From a virus, in the UHGV virus genome UHGV-0382441: 5,565 nt of DNA. One strand, 5' to 3'. Both the position numbers and the translations under genes were made by a program. Below are positions 1-5,565 of the stretch, piece after piece (the first letter of the stretch is position 1; each line of letters opens with the position of its first letter). The notes under the pieces were generated by a model that did not search any database, was not told the origin of the DNA, and saw nothing but the letters and a program-made list of their open reading frames with translations.

Positions 1-609
1 ATATCCATCTCCTACACTAAGTTTCTTCCAGATATGGTTCACTCCGGTGATTACATATGCATTTTCTTCTTGTTTGTTGGCGTAGTAGTTTTTGAATATG
101 TCCCAGTACGCCAGATTGAATATTGCAGGAAATCTTCGTAGGTATTGATTTGTCTTGGATCGTCCGAATCCTTTTATTCCCAAGTATGAGATCAGCGAGC
201 TCGGGTTGACCTGCCCTCTGTTGGTGTCGTTTTCATAGATCGATGTGTTGGCTGTGTATACTTGAAATTGTGGCAATAGTACTTTACTCATGTTCAACCC
301 TACTCCTAAAGCGTTATTATGCAGCGCTGCTATGTAGAGTCTGATCGGAATTACGAATACGTCGATTTGATGTTTGAAACTTCCGAATACAGGTCCGGTC
401 GTCGGCAGTGTTTTTACTTTTGTCGTGATATCGATGTAAAATGTCGTTCCGTCCATACCTATTTGGCACCAATAGGGAACGATTGTGCCGCACGCTTGCG
501 ATGTTCGGATTATTTTTCCTACGTTATGCGATGATCTACCGAAATTAGGCAGATATACTTCCATTTTGCTTTCGCTTCGGATTCTGTCTCCTCCTAATGT
601 TTTTTTCAT
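1..609 (-). CDS. VP1: Major capsid protein VP1 (Microviridae F-like jelly-roll), N-terminal part. It continues across the circular junction into 4129..5565.
   Basis: ATG at 609-607 on '-'. My translation is MKKTLGGDRIRSESKMEVYLPNFGRSSHNVGKIIRTSQACGTIVPYWCQIGMDGTTFYIDITTKVKTLPTTGPVFGSFKHQIDVFVIPIRLY... This matches the conserved N-terminal pattern of gokushovirus and alpavirus VP1 (RSxF..S...T...G.L.P....LPGDTF.....FFVPxRL). It is 203 complete codons, ending exactly at base 1. There is no stop, so the ORF runs off the window edge. The six-frame track omits it because it has no in-window stop. Confidence 0.85.
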   Translation of the reverse strand, partial: MKKTLGGDRIRSESKMEVYLPNFGRSSHNVGKIIRTSQACGTIVPYWCQIGMDGTTFYIDITTKVKTLPTTGPVFGSFKHQIDVFVIPIRLYIAALHNNALGVGLNMSKVLLPQFQVYTANTSIYENDTNRGQVNPSSLISYLGIKGFGRSKTNQYLRRFPAIFNLAYWDIFKNYYANKQEENAYVITGVNHIWKKLSVGDGY

Positions 610-612
610 GGC

Positions 613-957
613 TTATTTCGTTTGATTGTTTTTCATTTCTTCGTTTACGTGCAGGATGAATATGAATGTTGCGGTCAGGATGTCTTCCCATTCTTTTTTA
701 GCTATGTGTTCTTCAGCTTCCTCTTTAGTGTCGAATTCCTTTCCGTTCAAGAGTGAGCCGCACATTGTGATCACCCATTTGTTTTTCTTATTGCGGATCA
801 GCACGAATATGCCGTTTTCCGATTGTACTCTTTCTTCGATTTCGAGGTTTACGCTTTCGATTTCTTCTTCTTTTTTTCCGCTTTCAGCAAGTAGCTGATT
901 TCTGAATTTTTTGTCCATGTTACTTGATTTTTGTTGTTGTTGATACTTTTTGTTCAT
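613..957 (-). CDS. Hypothetical protein (114 aa), directly upstream of VP1. Its start lies inside a 39-bp tandem duplication. The true start may instead be the second in-frame ATG at 918-916 (MDKKFRNQ…).
   Basis: ORF on the virion strand. Its TAA at 615-613 is followed by GCC and then the VP1 ATG, in the same frame. It has a charged, Glu/Lys-rich composition. Its position between the Rep module and VP1 suggests a small structural, scaffold or DNA-binding accessory protein. Confidence 0.5.
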   Translation of the reverse strand: MNKKYQQQQKSSNMDKKFRNQLLAESGKKEEEIESVNLEIEERVQSENGIFVLIRNKKNKWVITMCGSLLNGKEFDTKEEAEEHIAKKEWEDILTATFIFILHVNEEMKNNQTK

Positions 958-987
958 GTTACTTGATTTTTGTTGTTGTTGATACTT
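913..987. repeat. Tandem direct duplication with a 39-bp period. A 33-nt unit is identical at 916-948 and 955-987.
   Basis: catgttacttgatttttgttgttgttgatactt occurs twice, offset by 39 nt. On the virion strand this duplicates AAGTATCAACAACAACAAAAATCAAGTAAC-ATG, the leader and start codon of ORF114, and it contains the ORF56 stop codon. Confidence 0.8.
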
Positions 988-1129
988 CGACTGTGTCGAT
1001 TTTGATTCCGTTTGCTTTGAGGTAGTGCTTGTGAGTGCATCCTTGCTCCATGATTACGGCAGCTGCGGCGCCGATTGCGGCCGCTATTACCGCGATCCAT
1101 TTTACGATTTTCTTTACTTTTTCATTCAT
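959..1129 (-). CDS. Small membrane protein (56 aa) with a predicted single transmembrane helix. It is not in the supplied ORF track (below its size cut-off).
   Basis: ATG at 1129-1127, six nt after the ORF116 TAA. TAA at 961-959, one nt before the ORF114 ATG. Hand translation: MNEKVKKIVKWIAVIAAAIGAAAAVIMEQGCTHKHYLKANGIKIDTVEVSTTTKIK. A basic N-terminus is followed by a 20-residue hydrophobic Ala/Gly-rich segment with a small-xxx-small packing pattern. The helix is encoded by a local GC-rich island (gcggcgccgattgcggccgc) in an otherwise AT-rich genome. It fits exactly into the gap between two neighbouring genes. Confidence 0.5.
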   Translation of the reverse strand: MNEKVKKIVKWIAVIAAAIGAAAAVIMEQGCTHKHYLKANGIKIDTVEVSTTTKIK

Positions 1130-1132
1130 AGT

Positions 1133-1483
1133 TTAGCGATAATTGAGTGTTGGTTTTTTTTTGATCATTACTATCCTTCTGATAATAGGTTCGTACAGTT
1201 GTTTTCTTTCGTTGTATATCCAGTTGCTTACCTCGTAGAAACTGATGCCGGTTCTTTGTGGTTTTTGAGTATCTACGTATTCTTTGTCGAATGTTTCTCC
1301 GTCTTCTGTCACGTAGAATGTTCCTTCGTATTGGAAGTTTCGTTTGGATACTGTTTCTGCACCGATCAGTTTTATAAGATTAGTGGATCTATCTCCGATG
1401 TCTCCTCTTCCTTTGGTGAATTTATTATCCTGTTTCTGGTCAATATATTCTCTATTTTTCTGGTCGCAAATTCCGTTTCCCAT
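1133..1483 (-). CDS. Hypothetical protein (116 aa) immediately downstream of Rep.
   Basis: ATG at 1483-1481, three nt after the VP4 TGA at 1489-1487. TAA at 1135-1133. It is on the virion strand, tightly packed against its neighbours. I recognise no motif in it. Confidence 0.5.
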   Translation of the reverse strand: MGNGICDQKNREYIDQKQDNKFTKGRGDIGDRSTNLIKLIGAETVSKRNFQYEGTFYVTEDGETFDKEYVDTQKPQRTGISFYEVSNWIYNERKQLYEPIIRRIVMIKKKPTLNYR

Positions 1484-1486
1484 ATT

Positions 1487-2398
1487 TCACGAATTAATTT
1501 CTCCTTCTTTATGATCAGGTCTGCATATGCCTTGCATATTTCCTTCTTTTCTCTTTCCGTCATATTTTTTGATTGATTGCCAATATTTTACTGCGTGTAC
1601 ATATTCTTCGTATTGTTTTATTGTTTCCACTTTGATAGGAGTTTTGTTGTAGTACTTTACTTGTTTTTCTTCTTTTATGATCCGGAGGGCTTCGCGTTCT
1701 TGATCTGTCCATATTTTTTGTCTGTAGTATGTTGGCAGTGCTACTTTTATTCCTGAGTTTGTTCTGTATGTTTCTTCTGTGAATTTATCCCGATATCTAT
1801 GCTTGTCGAGTGTGTTTTTGTTTATGTAGTTTATTCCGATTTTTTTTGAAGTGAATATTTTTCCGTTGAATTCAGGGTTGTCCTCGTCTTTTTTCGTTAT
1901 GTATTTTATGATGTAGTTTATCGTCCTTTCGTTTACTTCGTACCCGAAGAATACCCAGCCGTACCCCCATTCTTTTTCGAATTGTTCCTCTGTTAGTTCC
2001 GTCCATATAATGCCGTGTAGATGTATTCTTTTGGTATTGTCGTGTCCCAGTTCTGTGATTAGCCAGTGTTTGAGTGGTTTTTTATGCTTTTTCCACCATC
2101 GTTTTCTGAATAGGCTGACTGCTTTTTGAGGTGTTTTGTTCGGTTCGTTTTCGTCATATTCTAATTTTTTTAGGCTTTCTTCGGAGAACGTCAGCGTGGC
2201 AAATATAGTATTTTTTGGATTAGATTTTATTTCTTCCATCAATCTTACTCTCCATTCATTTGCTTTTGCGCGTCTGCATTCTTCGCAGTGTCCGCATGGA
2301 ATTTGTATCCATCTCAGACGACGGTCTCTTATTCTTTTAGCGTTTTCGTTCGATTTGGCGTACTTTGGATTCTCTATGGTACTTGGATATAGACACAC
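1487..2398 (-). CDS. VP4: Replication initiation protein VP4 (rolling-circle HUH endonuclease, phiX174 gpA-like). It apparently starts at GTG.
   Basis: 303 aa. Motif I (uuTuxx) is IFATLTF at 2186-2203. The PCGHCEEC Cys pair lies at 2276-2296. Motif II (HUH) is RIHLHGIIW, with HLHG at 2012-2023. Motif III is YIIKYITK at about 1901-1915, holding the catalytic Tyr. The N-terminus (M/V)CLYPSTIENPKY resembles the MxCxxP start of microviral Reps. The codon at 2398-2396 is CAC on '+', which is GTG on the virion strand. The nearest in-frame upstream stop is at 2425-2423, with no ATG in between. Confidence 0.85.
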   Translation of the reverse strand: MCLYPSTIENPKYAKSNENAKRIRDRRLRWIQIPCGHCEECRRAKANEWRVRLMEEIKSNPKNTIFATLTFSEESLKKLEYDENEPNKTPQKAVSLFRKRWWKKHKKPLKHWLITELGHDNTKRIHLHGIIWTELTEEQFEKEWGYGWVFFGYEVNERTINYIIKYITKKDEDNPEFNGKIFTSKKIGINYINKNTLDKHRYRDKFTEETYRTNSGIKVALPTYYRQKIWTDQEREALRIIKEEKQVKYYNKTPIKVETIKQYEEYVHAVKYWQSIKKYDGKRKEGNMQGICRPDHKEGEINS

Positions 2399-2436
2399 TG
2401 CTTTTAATTGAATTTTCCCCCTTTAAAATCATTTTT

Positions 2437-3645
2437 CTACCATTTTGTCGTTACGGTTTTATCTACTCCTTTGAAATTCATCTCCGGATCGTAGTGTTGT
2501 GTTACTGTCGATGAGTTCATGGGGGGAGTATTGTTCATCTTTCTTTCTGTGTATTCCCTGATCGCTTTTCCTGTTTTTCCTCCGATTACCATATTTCCTA
2601 CTACTTGCGCGAGTTTGAGGATCGTGTTTGCTATTTCGGTCCAGTATTGGAGTTCTCGCAGGTCTGCGGTTGCTTCTTCGGTTCTCTTTTTTGCTTCGAG
2701 TACTTTTGCTTCTGCCTTTTGGGTTTCGCCTGCTGCGTAGAAGTAAGCTGCTTGAGCCATTGCACTGCATGCGTCCGCGTTTATTTTTTTGATTTCTGCC
2801 GATAGTTTTTCGTCTGCATATATGCTTTCCAGAGTTTTGATTGCCGCTGTTCCTTCGAGGATTTGTTTTTCGGCTTTCATCATATCGCCCTGGAATGATT
2901 CCTCTCCGAATACGATTTTGCCGAATTTGTCATCTTCTATCTCGAAGTACTTCGGTATTTCGACTTCTTTGCCGTCGATTGTTGTTTTCTCTGTAGGCTG
3001 CCATTTTACCATCTGGTCCCATAGTTGATTTGCTGTGCTGATAAAGCCTTTCCAGCCTTCGAACATTTCCTGTTTTACCTGCCATATTCTCTTTTCGATT
3101 ATTGACGTGGTTTCTTCTTTGTTTTTGCCCGCTTCTGCTTTGAGTGCTTCTGCTTGCGTATTGAGCAGGTTGATTTCTGCCTCGTTCTTTCGTTCGCTCA
3201 TCCGCACCTGTCGTAATGACATCAATGCCTGTAGTTGCATATTCGGATCGGCTGCTGATCCTGCTCCTGTAGCTCCTGTTGCACCTATTGGAGCACCTGT
3301 TGTCGAACCGGCTCCTCCGCCTCCGGCGCCTCCTTTGCCATACATCAGACCGGGAGACAATCCCGCTGCATCCATTTGCGCGACTTGATTGGCGTAACTT
3401 TGGTCTTGATAGGTCCTGTTGTATAACACTTGCTGTCTTTCGAATGCATTCTCCGCCGCCATTTCTCCGTATTTGTAATTTATTTTGGCTGCGTTTTCTA
3501 CCATCTCTTTCTGCTGTCTTATCTGCCTCCTTCTGCCTATGCCTAGCGTGTTGAGGATTCCTGACACATTGCCTACAATTCCCGAGAGAGGGTTCATAAT
3601 ATCCTCTCCTTTTCCGAGTAGGTCTAATAGTTTTTTGAAGTTCAT
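2437..3645 (-). CDS. VP2: Minor capsid / DNA pilot protein VP2 (402 aa) with a Gly/Ala-rich low-complexity tract.
   Basis: It sits between VP1 and VP4, as in microviral genomes. Residues 103-134 are a Gly/Ala/Thr-rich stretch (GKGGAGGGGAGSTTGAPIGATGATGAGSAADP). The C-terminal half is helical and rich in Glu, Lys and Ala (…EAEINLLNTQAEALKAEAGKNKEE…), typical of VP2/H-like pilot proteins. ATG at 3645-3643, TAG at 2439-2437. Confidence 0.65.
   Translation of the reverse strand: MNFKKLLDLLGKGEDIMNPLSGIVGNVSGILNTLGIGRRRQIRQQKEMVENAAKINYKYGEMAAENAFERQQVLYNRTYQDQSYANQVAQMDAAGLSPGLMYGKGGAGGGGAGSTTGAPIGATGATGAGSAADPNMQLQALMSLRQVRMSERKNEAEINLLNTQAEALKAEAGKNKEETTSIIEKRIWQVKQEMFEGWKGFISTANQLWDQMVKWQPTEKTTIDGKEVEIPKYFEIEDDKFGKIVFGEESFQGDMMKAEKQILEGTAAIKTLESIYADEKLSAEIKKINADACSAMAQAAYFYAAGETQKAEAKVLEAKKRTEEATADLRELQYWTEIANTILKLAQVVGNMVIGGKTGKAIREYTERKMNNTPPMNSSTVTQHYDPEMNFKGVDKTVTTKW
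3244..3339 (-). repeat. Low-complexity Gly/Ala-coding tract inside VP2 (GGN/GCN codon repeats).
   Basis: The '+' strand reads cctgctcctgtagctcctgttgcacctattggagcacctgttgtcgaaccggctcctccgcctccggcgcctcc. This encodes GKGGAGGGGAGSTTGAPIGATGATGAGSAADP on the virion strand. Confidence 0.7.
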
Positions 3646-3740
3646 TTTCGTTCTTTTTTTAAAAAGAATTTATACCTATAGTTCTTGTTATATATGTATA
3701 AATGTCTACCGTTCTGTGCCACATATATTTACGAGGGTTA
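3646..3740 (-). promoter_or_regulatory. AT-rich non-coding leader upstream of VP2. Candidate promoter region with an imperfect inverted repeat.
   Basis: About 75% A+T. atatatgt at about 3692-3699 and acatatat at 3721-3728 form an imperfect inverted repeat. Virion-strand TATAAC / TATAAA-like hexamers are present. There is no clear Shine-Dalgarno motif before the VP2 ATG (…AAAAAAAGAACGAAA-ATG). Confidence 0.3.
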
Positions 3741-3771
3741 AAAGAGGGGGGCGGAAATATCCCCCCTCTTT
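3741..3771. terminator. Perfect 11-bp GC-rich hairpin (aaagagggggg / cggaaatat loop / cccccctcttt) in the only sizeable intergenic region. Candidate intrinsic terminator and/or replication-origin stem-loop.
   Basis: 3741-3751 is the exact reverse complement of 3761-3771, with a 9-nt loop. On the virion strand the stem is followed by TCTTTT-AACC. On the '+' strand it is followed by GAGTTTTGG. It lies about 30 nt downstream of the ORF107 stop and about 95 nt upstream of the VP2 start. Confidence 0.5.
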
Positions 3772-3800
3772 GAGTTTTGGTAGATCTTTATACGACTGCT

Positions 3801-4124
3801 TTAGCTTTTTTCGGGATCGGTTTTTTCTTCTGTCCCGAAATTTTTCGCAGCCTCGGTTTCGCCCTTGTTTTTTGCGATTTGGCTTGCTGTGCTTTGGTTG
3901 ATTTTATCCATTGCGTCTATCGCTACTTCGAATCGATCTGTTCTTATGTCGTATTCGGGTTGTACTCCATCCTTTTTTTCCGTGTAGATTGTCGGGAATA
4001 CTCCATCCTCCATGTTACTGGTTTCTCCGCTGATTATCTTTCTTAGTTTCACTTCCCTCGGTTCTGCTTCGTAGGTAAGGTCTGGATTATTGATACATCC
4101 TTTTCTATTTTTTGCTGTTTTCAT
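3801..4124 (-). CDS. Hypothetical acidic protein (107 aa) between VP1 and VP2. It may be a scaffolding-like protein.
   Basis: ATG at 4124-4122, four nt after the VP1 TAA (TAA-CACC-ATG). This suggests translational coupling with the capsid gene. It is Glu/Asp-rich. I recognise no motif, so any function is inferred from position alone. Confidence 0.45.
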   Translation of the reverse strand: MKTAKNRKGCINNPDLTYEAEPREVKLRKIISGETSNMEDGVFPTIYTEKKDGVQPEYDIRTDRFEVAIDAMDKINQSTASQIAKNKGETEAAKNFGTEEKTDPEKS

Positions 4125-4128
4125 GGTG

Positions 4129-5565
4129 TTATAAATTTGGAATTTGTTTTGCTGACATTACTCGACGTGCTGTTACGTCGAACGCTACTTGTACCCAGAA
4201 GTTTTGCGCACTTAGTCTCGACTCTGCGAATATGCTGTTGTATATCGTAGGGTCGATGTATGTCGTTGCGTTTTTAATCGAGCCGTCTTTATTTTCTTCG
4301 TATATTCTGTTCAAGCACATGAATGCTAAAGGCATTCCCGCGGCGAATTCGCCGTACGTTTCGTTTACGTCTGTCGTGTATTCGATCCATGAAGGTTGTT
4401 TTCCTAATGATTGGTACGTGTGTGTGTAGTTTTCAGTGGTTTCTGTGCTCCATGCAGCTGCTTCTTCCGCTATCAGTTCTTGAAATCCGATTGCGTCCAA
4501 TGTCGGTTTATGGAAGTCATCCATATTTTGCAGTCTTGTCCACCATTTGTTGCCTTGGCTGTAATCGATTCGAGGTGTGATCGATCCTAAGGCCATGATC
4601 ATGCTTGGTTCTGTGCATTTGATCTTCAAGCCTCTTCCGGATTTGTACATGGTTGCGACTCCTCGGCCGGCAAGTGTTCCTAATGGTTCTTCATCTGTCG
4701 CTGAGTTCGATACGATTTCGTCGAATGCGATTTCGCTTTGCATTCCGCCGCAGAAGATAGGAGATTCAGGCAGCGTTGTGCTTCTGATCCCGTACGTTGC
4801 CTCTCTCCACGCCTGATAGGTGCCGTCTGTAATAGCTACGCGATTCAGCATGTTGAAAATTTTCTTTTGAAGGATCAGAGCATCCATCGTAAGTTTTCCA
4901 TCGCTCACATCTACCGCTGTGATTGCGTTGATCCCTCCGGTCGTTCCGTCGATCCATTCGGTGTTCAGCCAGTTGTTGAACCTGTCGCTGAGATATGTTT
5001 TTATCGCCAACCCCGCTTGTGAGAACCATGCAAATGAGCTGGTATATGTTTGTGTGCGATCATGATTCGGCAGGTCTAAAGGCGCTGTCGCTGCCCTATA
5101 TGGCATTTTTGTATCGTCTATTACATATGCCGAGGAGCTGGGTGCCGCTAAGATTGCAGTTCGTACGTCGTCGATGGTTTTTAACGGGAATGGTGTTAGT
5201 TTGATCCTCTGGTTGTCCGGCATTGTTATTGCGTAAAGCCCGGTTTTATCTTCATTGTATGCAATTTTGATTTTCTTTTTGACCTTGTACATGTAAATGT
5301 TGGTTGCCTTCCTCAGGTTCTTCGGTTCCCTGAGTCCCGGCGCCTCCGGATCGGTTCGGTCGAATACAAAGCTGTCTCCGAGTTTTGTTAATTTGTTGGT
5401 TTTTGCTGTAGGGTTATTCGGATCATTCGTTAAGAATTGTATCTCGCCGACTGTGTCGGGTGAGACGTTTTCCTCGAATTCCAGTTTGATGTATTGCGGT
5501 TTTTCAGTAGTTGGATCGATTATGCATGTTTGACTTACGTTATTCTGCCATGATGCCCTCCAAGC
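4129..5565 (-). CDS. VP1: Major capsid protein VP1, C-terminal part. The frame is open from 5565 down to the TAA at 4131-4129. Total VP1 is about 681 aa when joined to 1..609.
   Basis: The track ORF 4129..5292 (387 aa) has a typical Microviridae VP1 C-terminus (…LGTLAGRGVATMYKSG…WSTET…FWVQVAFDVTARRVMSAKQIPNL). I translated upstream of the internal Met at 5292 and found no stop all the way to 5565. That frame is in phase with base 5565, and the 1..609 part ends in phase at base 1. Confidence 0.85.
   Translation of the reverse strand, partial: AWRASWQNNVSQTCIIDPTTEKPQYIKLEFEENVSPDTVGEIQFLTNDPNNPTAKTNKLTKLGDSFVFDRTDPEAPGLREPKNLRKATNIYMYKVKKKIKIAYNEDKTGLYAITMPDNQRIKLTPFPLKTIDDVRTAILAAPSSSAYVIDDTKMPYRAATAPLDLPNHDRTQTYTSSFAWFSQAGLAIKTYLSDRFNNWLNTEWIDGTTGGINAITAVDVSDGKLTMDALILQKKIFNMLNRVAITDGTYQAWREATYGIRSTTLPESPIFCGGMQSEIAFDEIVSNSATDEEPLGTLAGRGVATMYKSGRGLKIKCTEPSMIMALGSITPRIDYSQGNKWWTRLQNMDDFHKPTLDAIGFQELIAEEAAAWSTETTENYTHTYQSLGKQPSWIEYTTDVNETYGEFAAGMPLAFMCLNRIYEENKDGSIKNATTYIDPTIYNSIFAESRLSAQNFWVQVAFDVTARRVMSAKQIPNL

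Follow-up and report, generated by a model that had tools for sequence, protein, structure and literature searches.

UHGV-0382441, a virus genome of 5565 nucleotides (nt) that we have analyzed over its whole length (hereafter the window), is very probably one complete circular microvirus genome, given as its reverse complement and opened by the assembler inside VP1, the gene coding for the major capsid protein. We hold with the same high confidence the joint reading that adds to this a probable host among the gut Bacteroidales and a place in a distinct family-level clade. The virus belongs to the Microviridae in the broad sense (class Microviricetes) and would be a small tailless icosahedral phage with single-stranded DNA (ssDNA), and the window falls within the size range of the circular genomes of that group (ca. 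4.4–6.9 kb). As a genome it is ordinary, one more complete microvirus of a heavily sampled lineage from which identical or nearly identical contigs are already public and unannotated. Its interest is carried by side observations, i.e., the nucleotide composition of the coding strand and a conserved cis element, more than by the genome itself.

Genome unit and VP1 junction

All the open reading frames (ORFs) of any size listed over the window are located on the minus strand. On this strand, positions 609 to 1 contain 203 sense codons (ATG at 609–607); the translation begins with MKKTLGG..., its last residues are ...WKKLSVGDGY, and the final codon is complete at base 1. From base 5565 the same strand reads AWRASWQNNV... 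and continues for 478 codons until a TAA stop at 4131–4129, so that the two pieces of VP1 occupy positions 1–609 and 4129–5565. There is no terminal repeat between the ends of the window, which therefore represents exactly one genome unit, and when they are joined a single VP1 ORF of 681 amino acids (aa) is obtained. A protein of this same length (P0001), 100% identical over the entire joined VP1, is found in a public protein collection. The independent Logan contig SRR14000859_148582 (L003, 5553 nt) has a different breakpoint, and in it VP1 is unbroken, 100% identical and free of gaps over the 5565/1 join. Another piece 100% identical to the window was found in a second run (ERR8081566). In 10 relatives (87–92% identity) VP1 measures 680–682 aa and the residues around the joint Y203|A204 are kept, G200 and G202 on one side and W205 and W209 on the other. 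The cut is located at the start of a hypervariable insertion region of about 140 aa (VP1 residues ~188–330). The initial annotation had described VP1 as 203 codons plus a C-terminal part amounting to ca. 681 aa, within one full circular genome cut in this gene and with VP2, a HUH Rep and the small ORFs on one strand. The translation and the identical public protein bear out the first statement, L003 and the circular relatives the second, and the ORF listing the third.

The identity of the three large proteins is well supported. VP1 has the hallmarks of an F/VP1-type jelly-roll capsid protein, with matches to Pfam Phage_F (PF02305, 40.7 bits, cut-off 25), to PHROG 514 (major head protein, E 4.5e-40) and to PDB 8DES, a gokushovirus capsid (E 1.8e-15) that is the only solved structure detectable by the VP1 sequence. 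A tblastn search gave one unbroken alignment of residues 1–681 to the whole VP1 of circular microvirus genomes, the best being those of bajarodmic virus 724 and of a genome from civet faeces, both ca. 55% identical, which shows the joined protein to be colinear across the junction. The characteristic pilot protein of the Microviridae (H/VP2) is also present. VP2 (2437–3645, minus strand) is a DNA pilot or minor capsid protein of 402 aa with a Gly/Ala-rich stretch, identified by its matches to eight PHROG families of “pilot protein for DNA ejection” (best E 8.8e-7) and by its position, which is that of the annotated pilot genes in the relatives. VP4, the rolling-circle initiator Rep (1487–2398, minus strand), is a 303-aa ORF with a GTG start that matches Pfam REP_ORF2-G2P (PF23343, 45.9 bits, cut-off 27.8) and phrog_942 (E 6.8e-33). 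The motifs of a superfamily-I HUH Rep can be seen directly in the sequence: motif I (FATLTF, 2203–2186), motif II (HLHGIIW, 2023–2003) and motif III (YIIKYITK, 1915–1892), in addition to CGHCEEC at 2296–2276. The GTG start leads into MCLYP..., the N-terminus common to all relatives and prophages.

Circularity was evident in the relatives as well. We found assembler terminal overlaps of 25–127 nt in 23 related contigs, with trimmed units of 5522–5535 nt, and two ENA scaffolds (10,040 and 7500 nt) that are head-to-tail concatemers with a period of 5525–5526 nt. The circularized set comprises 25 relatives with units of 5522–5535 nt. Over some 60 close relatives the contigs are all 5.5–5.7 kb, with terminal overlaps or concatemers. 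In coding sense the order of the genome is VP1 (681 aa), a 107-aa ORF (ORF107), an intergenic region of ca. 155 nt, VP2 (402 aa), Rep (ca. 285–303 aa), a 63-aa gene, a 116-aa ORF (ORF116), a 56-aa protein (ORF56), an ORF of 101 (+13) aa and VP1 again. These eight ORFs are intact in 25 of the 25 circularized relatives (24–25 for the 63-aa ORF) and are under purifying selection. The ratio of nonsynonymous to synonymous polymorphism (pN/pS, a pairwise Nei-Gojobori count with off-frame controls of 0.9–2.0) was between 0.10 and 0.19 for VP1 (0.185), ORF107, VP2 (0.127), the Rep core (0.138) and ORF56. The tail of Rep gave 0.93; the last ca. 25 codons of the 303-aa ORF are free of constraint in the Rep frame, and the Reps of the relatives vary between 285 and 303 aa. 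Every base of the window is either microviral coding sequence or conserved intergenic region, and we encountered no evidence contradicting completeness or circularity.

That the window could instead be a prophage or a piece of bacterial chromosome is suggested by the distant relatives (39–46% VP1 identity) integrated in Bacteroidales genomes, three out of four flanked by dif-like imperfect repeats. However, these prophages open between Rep and the small ORFs whereas the window opens inside VP1, where its ends meet in frame and the junction is spanned by the independent contig L003. There is no host-like sequence in the window, no att- or dif-like site in it scored better than shuffled sequence, and the close relatives have the uniform size and the overlapping or concatenated ends mentioned above. 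This alternative is effectively refuted, and the claim of the initial annotation that the sequence is neither prophage nor fragment stands. The exact length of the circle is a different matter. The window is 39 nt longer than its 5526-nt relatives because of a tandem duplication at 908–985 (two copies of 39 nt with one mismatch) that covers the stop of ORF56 and the start codon (ATG) of the gene that follows. The latter gains 13 in-frame residues and reaches 114 aa, versus 101 aa in 15 of the 25 circularized relatives; in the other 10 there is a longer call of the same ORF, from an upstream in-frame start. A mis-assembly of a true circle of 5526 nt would account for the size of all 25 relatives (5522–5535 nt) and for the fact that the 27-nt terminal overlap of L003 would also permit closure into a circle of 5526 nt. 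Against it, L003 and a second Logan contig from a different run (L004), both with 100% identity to the window, stop at one common base of the repeat. This is expected if the reads carry the duplication, since a 31-mer that occurs twice makes the de Bruijn graph branch, hence the duplication is probably real. Besides, a plain cyclic unitig shows an overlap of 30 nt (L024) and not the 27 of L003, one base distinguishes the two copies, and the reading frame is preserved. We consider the mis-assembly unlikely and the duplication probably genuine and present in three datasets, i.e., in the window and the two Logan contigs, which sets these apart from the other public contigs.

Placement and strand composition

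On the evidence of its sequence, we place the window in a distinct family-level clade, outside the Gokushovirinae and the Alpavirinae in the strict sense. Its VP1 is 36–56% identical to those of nine members in a single full-length alignment, and 43–46% identical to those of three prophages and one contig of a metagenome-assembled genome (MAG) in two segments split by the variable insert. The members share the order VP1, an ORF of ca. 105 aa with DIRTDRF, VP2 and a Rep of ca. 300–350 aa starting with MCLYP or MCLFP, together with a 30-nt motif (3710–3681 in the window) and an A-rich coding strand (AT skew of the window +0.41). In neighbor-joining (NJ) bootstrap trees of VP1 (419–510 trimmed columns, supports given as ranges), the clade of the window (14 taxa) was recovered at 100%, the Alpavirinae in the strict sense at 98–100%, and the gokushoviruses plus Parabacteroides phage YZ-2015a at 88–100%. 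The deeper groupings were unstable, namely the clade with the Alpavirinae (22–76%), the Alpavirinae with the gokushoviruses (22–75%) and the clade with the gokushoviruses (2–6%). The VP1 phylogeny proposed at the outset as a check for a described subfamily hence gave a well-defined group, located outside both of the subfamilies considered.

The initial annotation had set the virus apart from the classical gokushoviruses by its large VP1 and by the order VP1-VP2-VP4. The first part holds, with 681 aa versus 553–566 aa, but the second does not, for the gokushovirus Chp2 has the order VP1-VP2-VP3-ORF8-Rep. The arrangement VP1-VP2-VP4 is the rule outside the Pichovirinae and a few families (Roux, 2012; Kirchberger, 2022) and, being near-universal, it discriminates nothing. 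With the Gokushovirinae (Chp2, SpV4; 8DES) the window has in common the core genes, the VP1-VP2-...-Rep order and the size of Rep (336 aa in Chp2). The differences are the size of VP1, the presence there of VP3 and VP5, which are undetectable in the window, and the coding strands, which in gokushoviruses are not A-rich, with a skew close to zero overall and T dominant at the fourfold sites of Chp2.

The composition of the coding strand is the most distinctive character of the group. In the window it contains 40.8% A and 17.2% T, and the fourfold sites of VP1 have 48% A and 10.5% T. The AT skew was between +0.25 and +0.41 in seven clade members and between +0.18 and +0.52 in 25 more (the A-rich members tested being the window, L001, L002, L009–L012, L015, L017 and L062–L090). 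In contrast, 13 of 13 microviruses outside the clade, including the nearest outgroups (25–27% VP1 identity) and Bacteroides phage phiHBP1, had skews from 0.00 to −0.20, and T reached 36–74% at the fourfold sites of the ten capsid genes scored. This mirrored composition is a robust anomaly of the whole clade. The T-rich bias known from ssDNA phages has been put down to deamination (C>T) of the strand that is packaged (Cardinale and Duffy, 2011). We counted the coding-strand singletons of 24 close relatives (the window and the L021–L061 units) and found A>G 169, C>T 81, G>A 57 and T>C 34, an excess of A>G and C>T indicating that deamination-type damage falls on the coding strand. At fourfold sites there were 28 A>G versus a single G>A, so that mutation currently runs counter to the A-richness. 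These counts suggest that the A-richness is maintained by selection, rather than by a G>A mutational bias. The singletons C>A (28) and G>T (5) on the coding strand point in the opposite direction to the deamination-type counts. One relative, L059 (IMGVR_UViG_3300029738_000083), looks hypermutated on the coding strand only, with 55 deamination-type changes (A>G 37, C>T 18) versus 5 (G>A 2, T>C 3) and a lower A content (38.4%).

The second shared character is the 30-nt motif GGTAGACATTTATACATATATAACAAGAAC (3681–3710, minus strand), which is near-invariant in close relatives and is conserved at the nucleotide level even in those with only 36–56% VP1 identity. An nhmmer profile detected it in 68 of 90 loci, as a single copy per genome and without exception on the coding strand, and not in the five references outside the clade that were searched in the same way (phiX174, Chp2, SpV4, YZ-2015a and phiHBP1). 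It is likely a cis-acting element and may function as an origin of replication or as a promoter or operator. In some clade members its reverse complement contains ACTTGATAT, the core of the phiX174 origin; the window has TCTTGTTAT, an AT-rich spacer and a G/C-containing end. We also considered a dif-like XerC/D attachment site (attP) and discarded it, as the prophage att sites and the dif of Escherichia coli match the window no better than shuffles. In the prophages having the motif it is internal and away from the junctions. In the literature that we searched we found no description of an inverted strand composition or of a conserved 30-nt cis element.

The initial annotation had considered the virus closer to the Alpavirinae. 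As prototypes of this subfamily (BMV1–7, proviruses of Bacteroides and Prevotella; Krupovic and Forterre, 2011) we used the proteins in Table S3 of Krupovic and Forterre and the genome of the Bacteroides fragilis microvirus phiHBP1, a true alpavirus given that its VP1 is 37% identical to that of BMV1 over the full length. The likeness holds in a loose sense: the association with Bacteroidales, a large VP1 with insertions (its 681 aa are inside the range of 541–780 of Roux, 2012), a conserved ORF following VP1, a small hydrophobic ORF with a Cys, no recognizable VP3, VP5 or J, and the sister position that the clade takes in part of the NJ bootstraps. However, membership of the subfamily as originally defined (BMV-type; Family 5 in Kirchberger, 2022) is very unlikely. 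A family has been delimited by at least 30% amino acid identity over at least 80% of the VP1 length (Kirchberger, 2022), and the VP1 of the window falls below this, being only 20–23% identical to those of BMV1, BMV3, BMV4 and phiHBP1 over 226–280 aa (E 1e-7 to 7e-11), with the similarity restricted to the C-terminal third. As a reference, its match to Chp2 was of similar strength (E 1e-7, 28% over 141 aa) and that to YZ-2015a was better (E 8e-26). BMV1 in turn matches Chp2 over the full length (23%, E 3e-21), more closely than it does the window (23% over 226 aa, E 4e-10). The long Rep of the Alpavirinae (497–569 aa, ca. 500–570 aa and immediately upstream of VP1 in the BMV proviruses) has as its counterpart one of 303 aa separated from VP1 by four small ORFs. 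Instead of dif-flanked proviruses of Bacteroides or Prevotella, only distant relatives of the window are integrated, in other Bacteroidales genera. The Alpavirinae have a T-rich coding strand, phiHBP1 being opposite to the window in this respect, and phiHBP1 has an M15 peptidase that the window lacks, while lacking the 30-nt motif. A large VP1 together with the VP1-VP2-VP4 order is insufficient to assign a genome to the Alpavirinae.

The inverted composition raises another alternative that would leave the separate clade untouched, i.e., that the polarity is reversed, with the origin on the non-coding strand and a virion strand antisense to the mRNAs (a negative-sense microvirus). It would account for the A-rich, T-poor coding strand of all the clade members tested, against one that is T-rich or neutral in 13 of 13 microviruses outside the clade, and the motif would be nicked on the non-coding strand, where its reverse complement resembles the phiX174 origin. 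Skew reversal is seen when mitochondrial replication origins invert, an analogy for such a flipped polarity, and the excess of C>A over G>T singletons goes in the same direction. On the other hand, the recent mutations put the deamination-type changes on the coding strand, the ratio of 28 to 1 at fourfold sites points to selection, and the similarity to the phiX174 origin is short (rough chance p ~0.02) and reaches just 7 of 9 positions in the window itself. On balance reversed polarity seems quite improbable, and the recent mutations fit a canonical polarity. If the packaging is canonical, a strong and clade-specific selection for A-ending codons against the mutational flow still needs explaining. 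In either case, the inverted composition and the 30-nt element make the packaged strand and the origin of this lineage directly testable.

Relatives, host and proposed life cycle

The window is a strain of a population represented by unannotated and unclassified public contigs. We found more than 100 proteins at 86–92% identity, in contigs that are nearly all 5.3–5.7 kb, and IMG/VR contains ca. 37 such genomes. The gut contigs in Logan, ENA and IMG/VR (e.g., SRR14000859_148582) have a VP1 80–92% and up to 100% identical to that of the window and all eight ORFs. Their source is presumably human gut, judging by the scaffold labels FENG15 and HILD21 and by IMG identifiers of HMP style. The nearest deposited phage genomes are bajarodmic virus 724 (PQ006946, rodent faeces), the nearest one in GenBank, circular and 5528 nt long, and Microviridae sp. 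7879-1612 (MG945452, civet faeces), circular and 5728 nt long. Both have the same gene order and sizes as the window, with a VP1 of 687 and 670 aa, respectively, the ca. 107-aa ORF, the pilot protein, a Rep of 303 and 308 aa starting with MCLYP and the small ORFs, and they share the intergenic hairpin, the 30-nt motif and the A-rich coding strand. They differ in the absence of the 39-nt duplication and in the degree of identity (55–56% for VP1 and 46–51% for Rep), and in a megablast search against phages the nucleotide similarity was limited to patches of 46–47 nt. In the NCBI taxonomy (dump of 2026-09-30) the Microviridae have become a class, Microviricetes, in which the order Alpavirales comprises five families. 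The genera Alpaglavirus, Alcafavirus, Alciorovirus and Alhyhydvirus of the Litilviridae, which list no exemplars, seem to echo civet, dog, Ciona and capybara; these are the sample sources of the GenBank relatives of the window, and we mention it only as a lead, in that a formal family may already exist for the clade.

More distant relatives (39–46% VP1 identity) were found integrated in a scan of genome collections, in two Dysgonomonas genomes, a Paludibacteraceae MAG and a Phocaeicola MAG. These prophages (L015–L017 and L019) have a VP1 of 668–694 aa, the order VP1, ca. 105-aa ORF, VP2 and Rep of ca. 310–340 aa, and an A-rich composition; three of the four contain the 30-nt motif, internally, the exception being L019 (Paludibacteraceae), where the search did not detect it. 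The prophages of Dysgonomonas and Paludibacteraceae have dif-like imperfect direct repeats of 24–31 nt on both sides of ca. 6.0–6.3 kb (6664–6694/12721–12751 in L017, 2660–2687/8662–8689 in L015 and 6518–6541/12812–12835 in L019; e.g., TTAAACATAATGGTAATTATATAACAAA), a kind of site that the window does not have. The position of these repeats, between Rep and the small ORFs, extends to the clade of the window the XerC/D-type integration proposed for the BMV proviruses. The window strain, with no integration site, is probably lytic or episomal. For another relative, Dulem virus 222, iPHoP predicted Alistipes as host. Taking the Bacteroidales prophages together with this prediction, a member of the Bacteroidales is the best inference, and from the sequences the host is most probably a gut bacterium of this order.

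Following established microvirus biology, VP2 would pilot the ssDNA circle into the cell, where host enzymes would turn it into the double-stranded replicative form. Rep would then nick the origin by means of its HUH and YxxxY motifs and drive rolling-circle synthesis, 60 copies of VP1 would form a T=1 capsid, on which the large variable insertion would probably make a receptor-binding protrusion, and the progeny single strand would be packaged.

Several points weigh against the overall reading of an ssDNA microvirus of gut Bacteroidales. A strand composition opposite to that of 13 other microviruses bears on which strand is packaged. The AlphaFold2 model of VP1, made from an alignment of 11 sequences that were 87–100% identical, had a mean predicted local distance difference test score (pLDDT) of 31 and is unusable. 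ORF107 may be the internal scaffolding protein, judging by its position and not by its sequence. We infer the ssDNA nature, the T=1 capsid, the lytic lifestyle and the host from what is known of related phages and from comparison. Finally, a whole phage genome with 83% VP1 identity (5673 nt, including 12 Ns) is found as scaffold_75 of the RefSeq assembly of an isolate, Acinetobacter lwoffii SU1904 (L013, NZ_JACWEU010000076.1), and this could mean a different host. Since it is a stand-alone scaffold with Ns, carry-over is probable and we regard it as unreliable for host assignment. With these provisos the window provides a clean annotated reference for a lineage that is apparently common in gut metagenomes, including the GTG start of Rep, an overlapping 63-aa gene and a regulatory intergenic region.

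Small genes and intergenic region

None of the small ORFs had a match in Pfam or PHROGs, and we could not recognize among them a VP3 scaffold or a VP5. ORF107 (3801–4124, minus strand), directly downstream of VP1, has the conserved core P.IYT..K.GV.P.YDIRTDRFE.A..AMDK, is intact in 25 of 25 close relatives with a pN/pS of 0.154, and has homologs at the same position in all the distant relatives and in the Bacteroidales prophages. Profile searches of ORF107 in Pfam, PHROGs and PDB gave no match. For the Alpavirinae, the scaffolding role of the ORF after VP1 is likewise a positional guess (Krupovic and Forterre, 2011). A detectable homology to VP3 can be discarded: the hidden Markov model of the ORF107 family did not match the putative VP3 of BMV1, BMV3 and BMV4, the VP3 of Chp2 (0.6 bits), the 166-aa ORF of phiHBP1 or gp2 of YZ-2015a.

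The 63-aa gene (1372–1563, minus strand, ATG start) is in another frame and overlaps the tail of Rep and the start of ORF116. In the overlap with Rep the pN/pS was 0.17 in the 63-aa frame versus 0.93 in that of Rep, and in the overlap with ORF116 it was 0.45 versus 0.88. Given that purifying selection falls on the 63-aa frame in both overlaps, this is a real overlapping gene, omitted in the recorded gene calls for the contigs of the relatives. ORF116 (1133–1483, minus strand), although found intact in 25 of 25 relatives, has the lowest conservation of all the genes (median identity 66%); its 37 N-terminal codons are without clear constraint, and its non-overlapping part had a pN/pS of 0.43 versus 0.93–1.03 in the off-frame controls.

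At the other extreme, the 56-aa protein (959–1129, minus strand) is the most conserved product of the genome (median identity 93%, pN/pS 0.105). It resembles a small membrane protein or lipoprotein, with a basic N-terminus, the helix WIAVIAAAIGAAAAVIM and then Cys31, the hydropathy being 2.44 over the 17 residues of the hydrophobic helix. Similar small hydrophobic ORFs with a Cys precede VP1 in the Paludibacteraceae and Faecalimonas loci, as well as in BMV1/2 (gp2), and the protein may be a candidate for a role in lysis or exclusion. Directly upstream of VP1 is the 114-aa ORF (613–957, minus strand), i.e., the 101-aa ORF of the relatives with the N-terminal extension of 13 aa; its 101-aa core had a pN/pS of 0.34.

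The region 3646–3800 is the only sizeable non-coding stretch and is strongly structured (−20.2 kcal/mol, z = −3.8, better than 200 of 200 shuffles). Neither the Rfam nor the tRNA scans gave a match, and a scan for sigma-70 promoters and terminators, which misses hairpins with a 9-nt loop, gave counts no higher than shuffles. After ORF107 there is a GC-rich hairpin, AAAGAGGGGGG-(9-nt loop)-CCCCCCTCTTT followed by T (3741–3771, minus strand). In 21 relatives its stem is essentially conserved, only occasional single bases being changed or deleted, and variation is found in the loop; the distant relatives have hairpins of other sequence at the same site. It is likely a transcription terminator after VP1 and ORF107 and/or a structural element of the ssDNA. 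Next to VP2, a palindrome made of a T-run and an A-run, TTCTTTTTAAAAAAAGAA (3651–3668, minus strand), followed by CGAAA and then by the ATG of VP2, is conserved in close and distant relatives.

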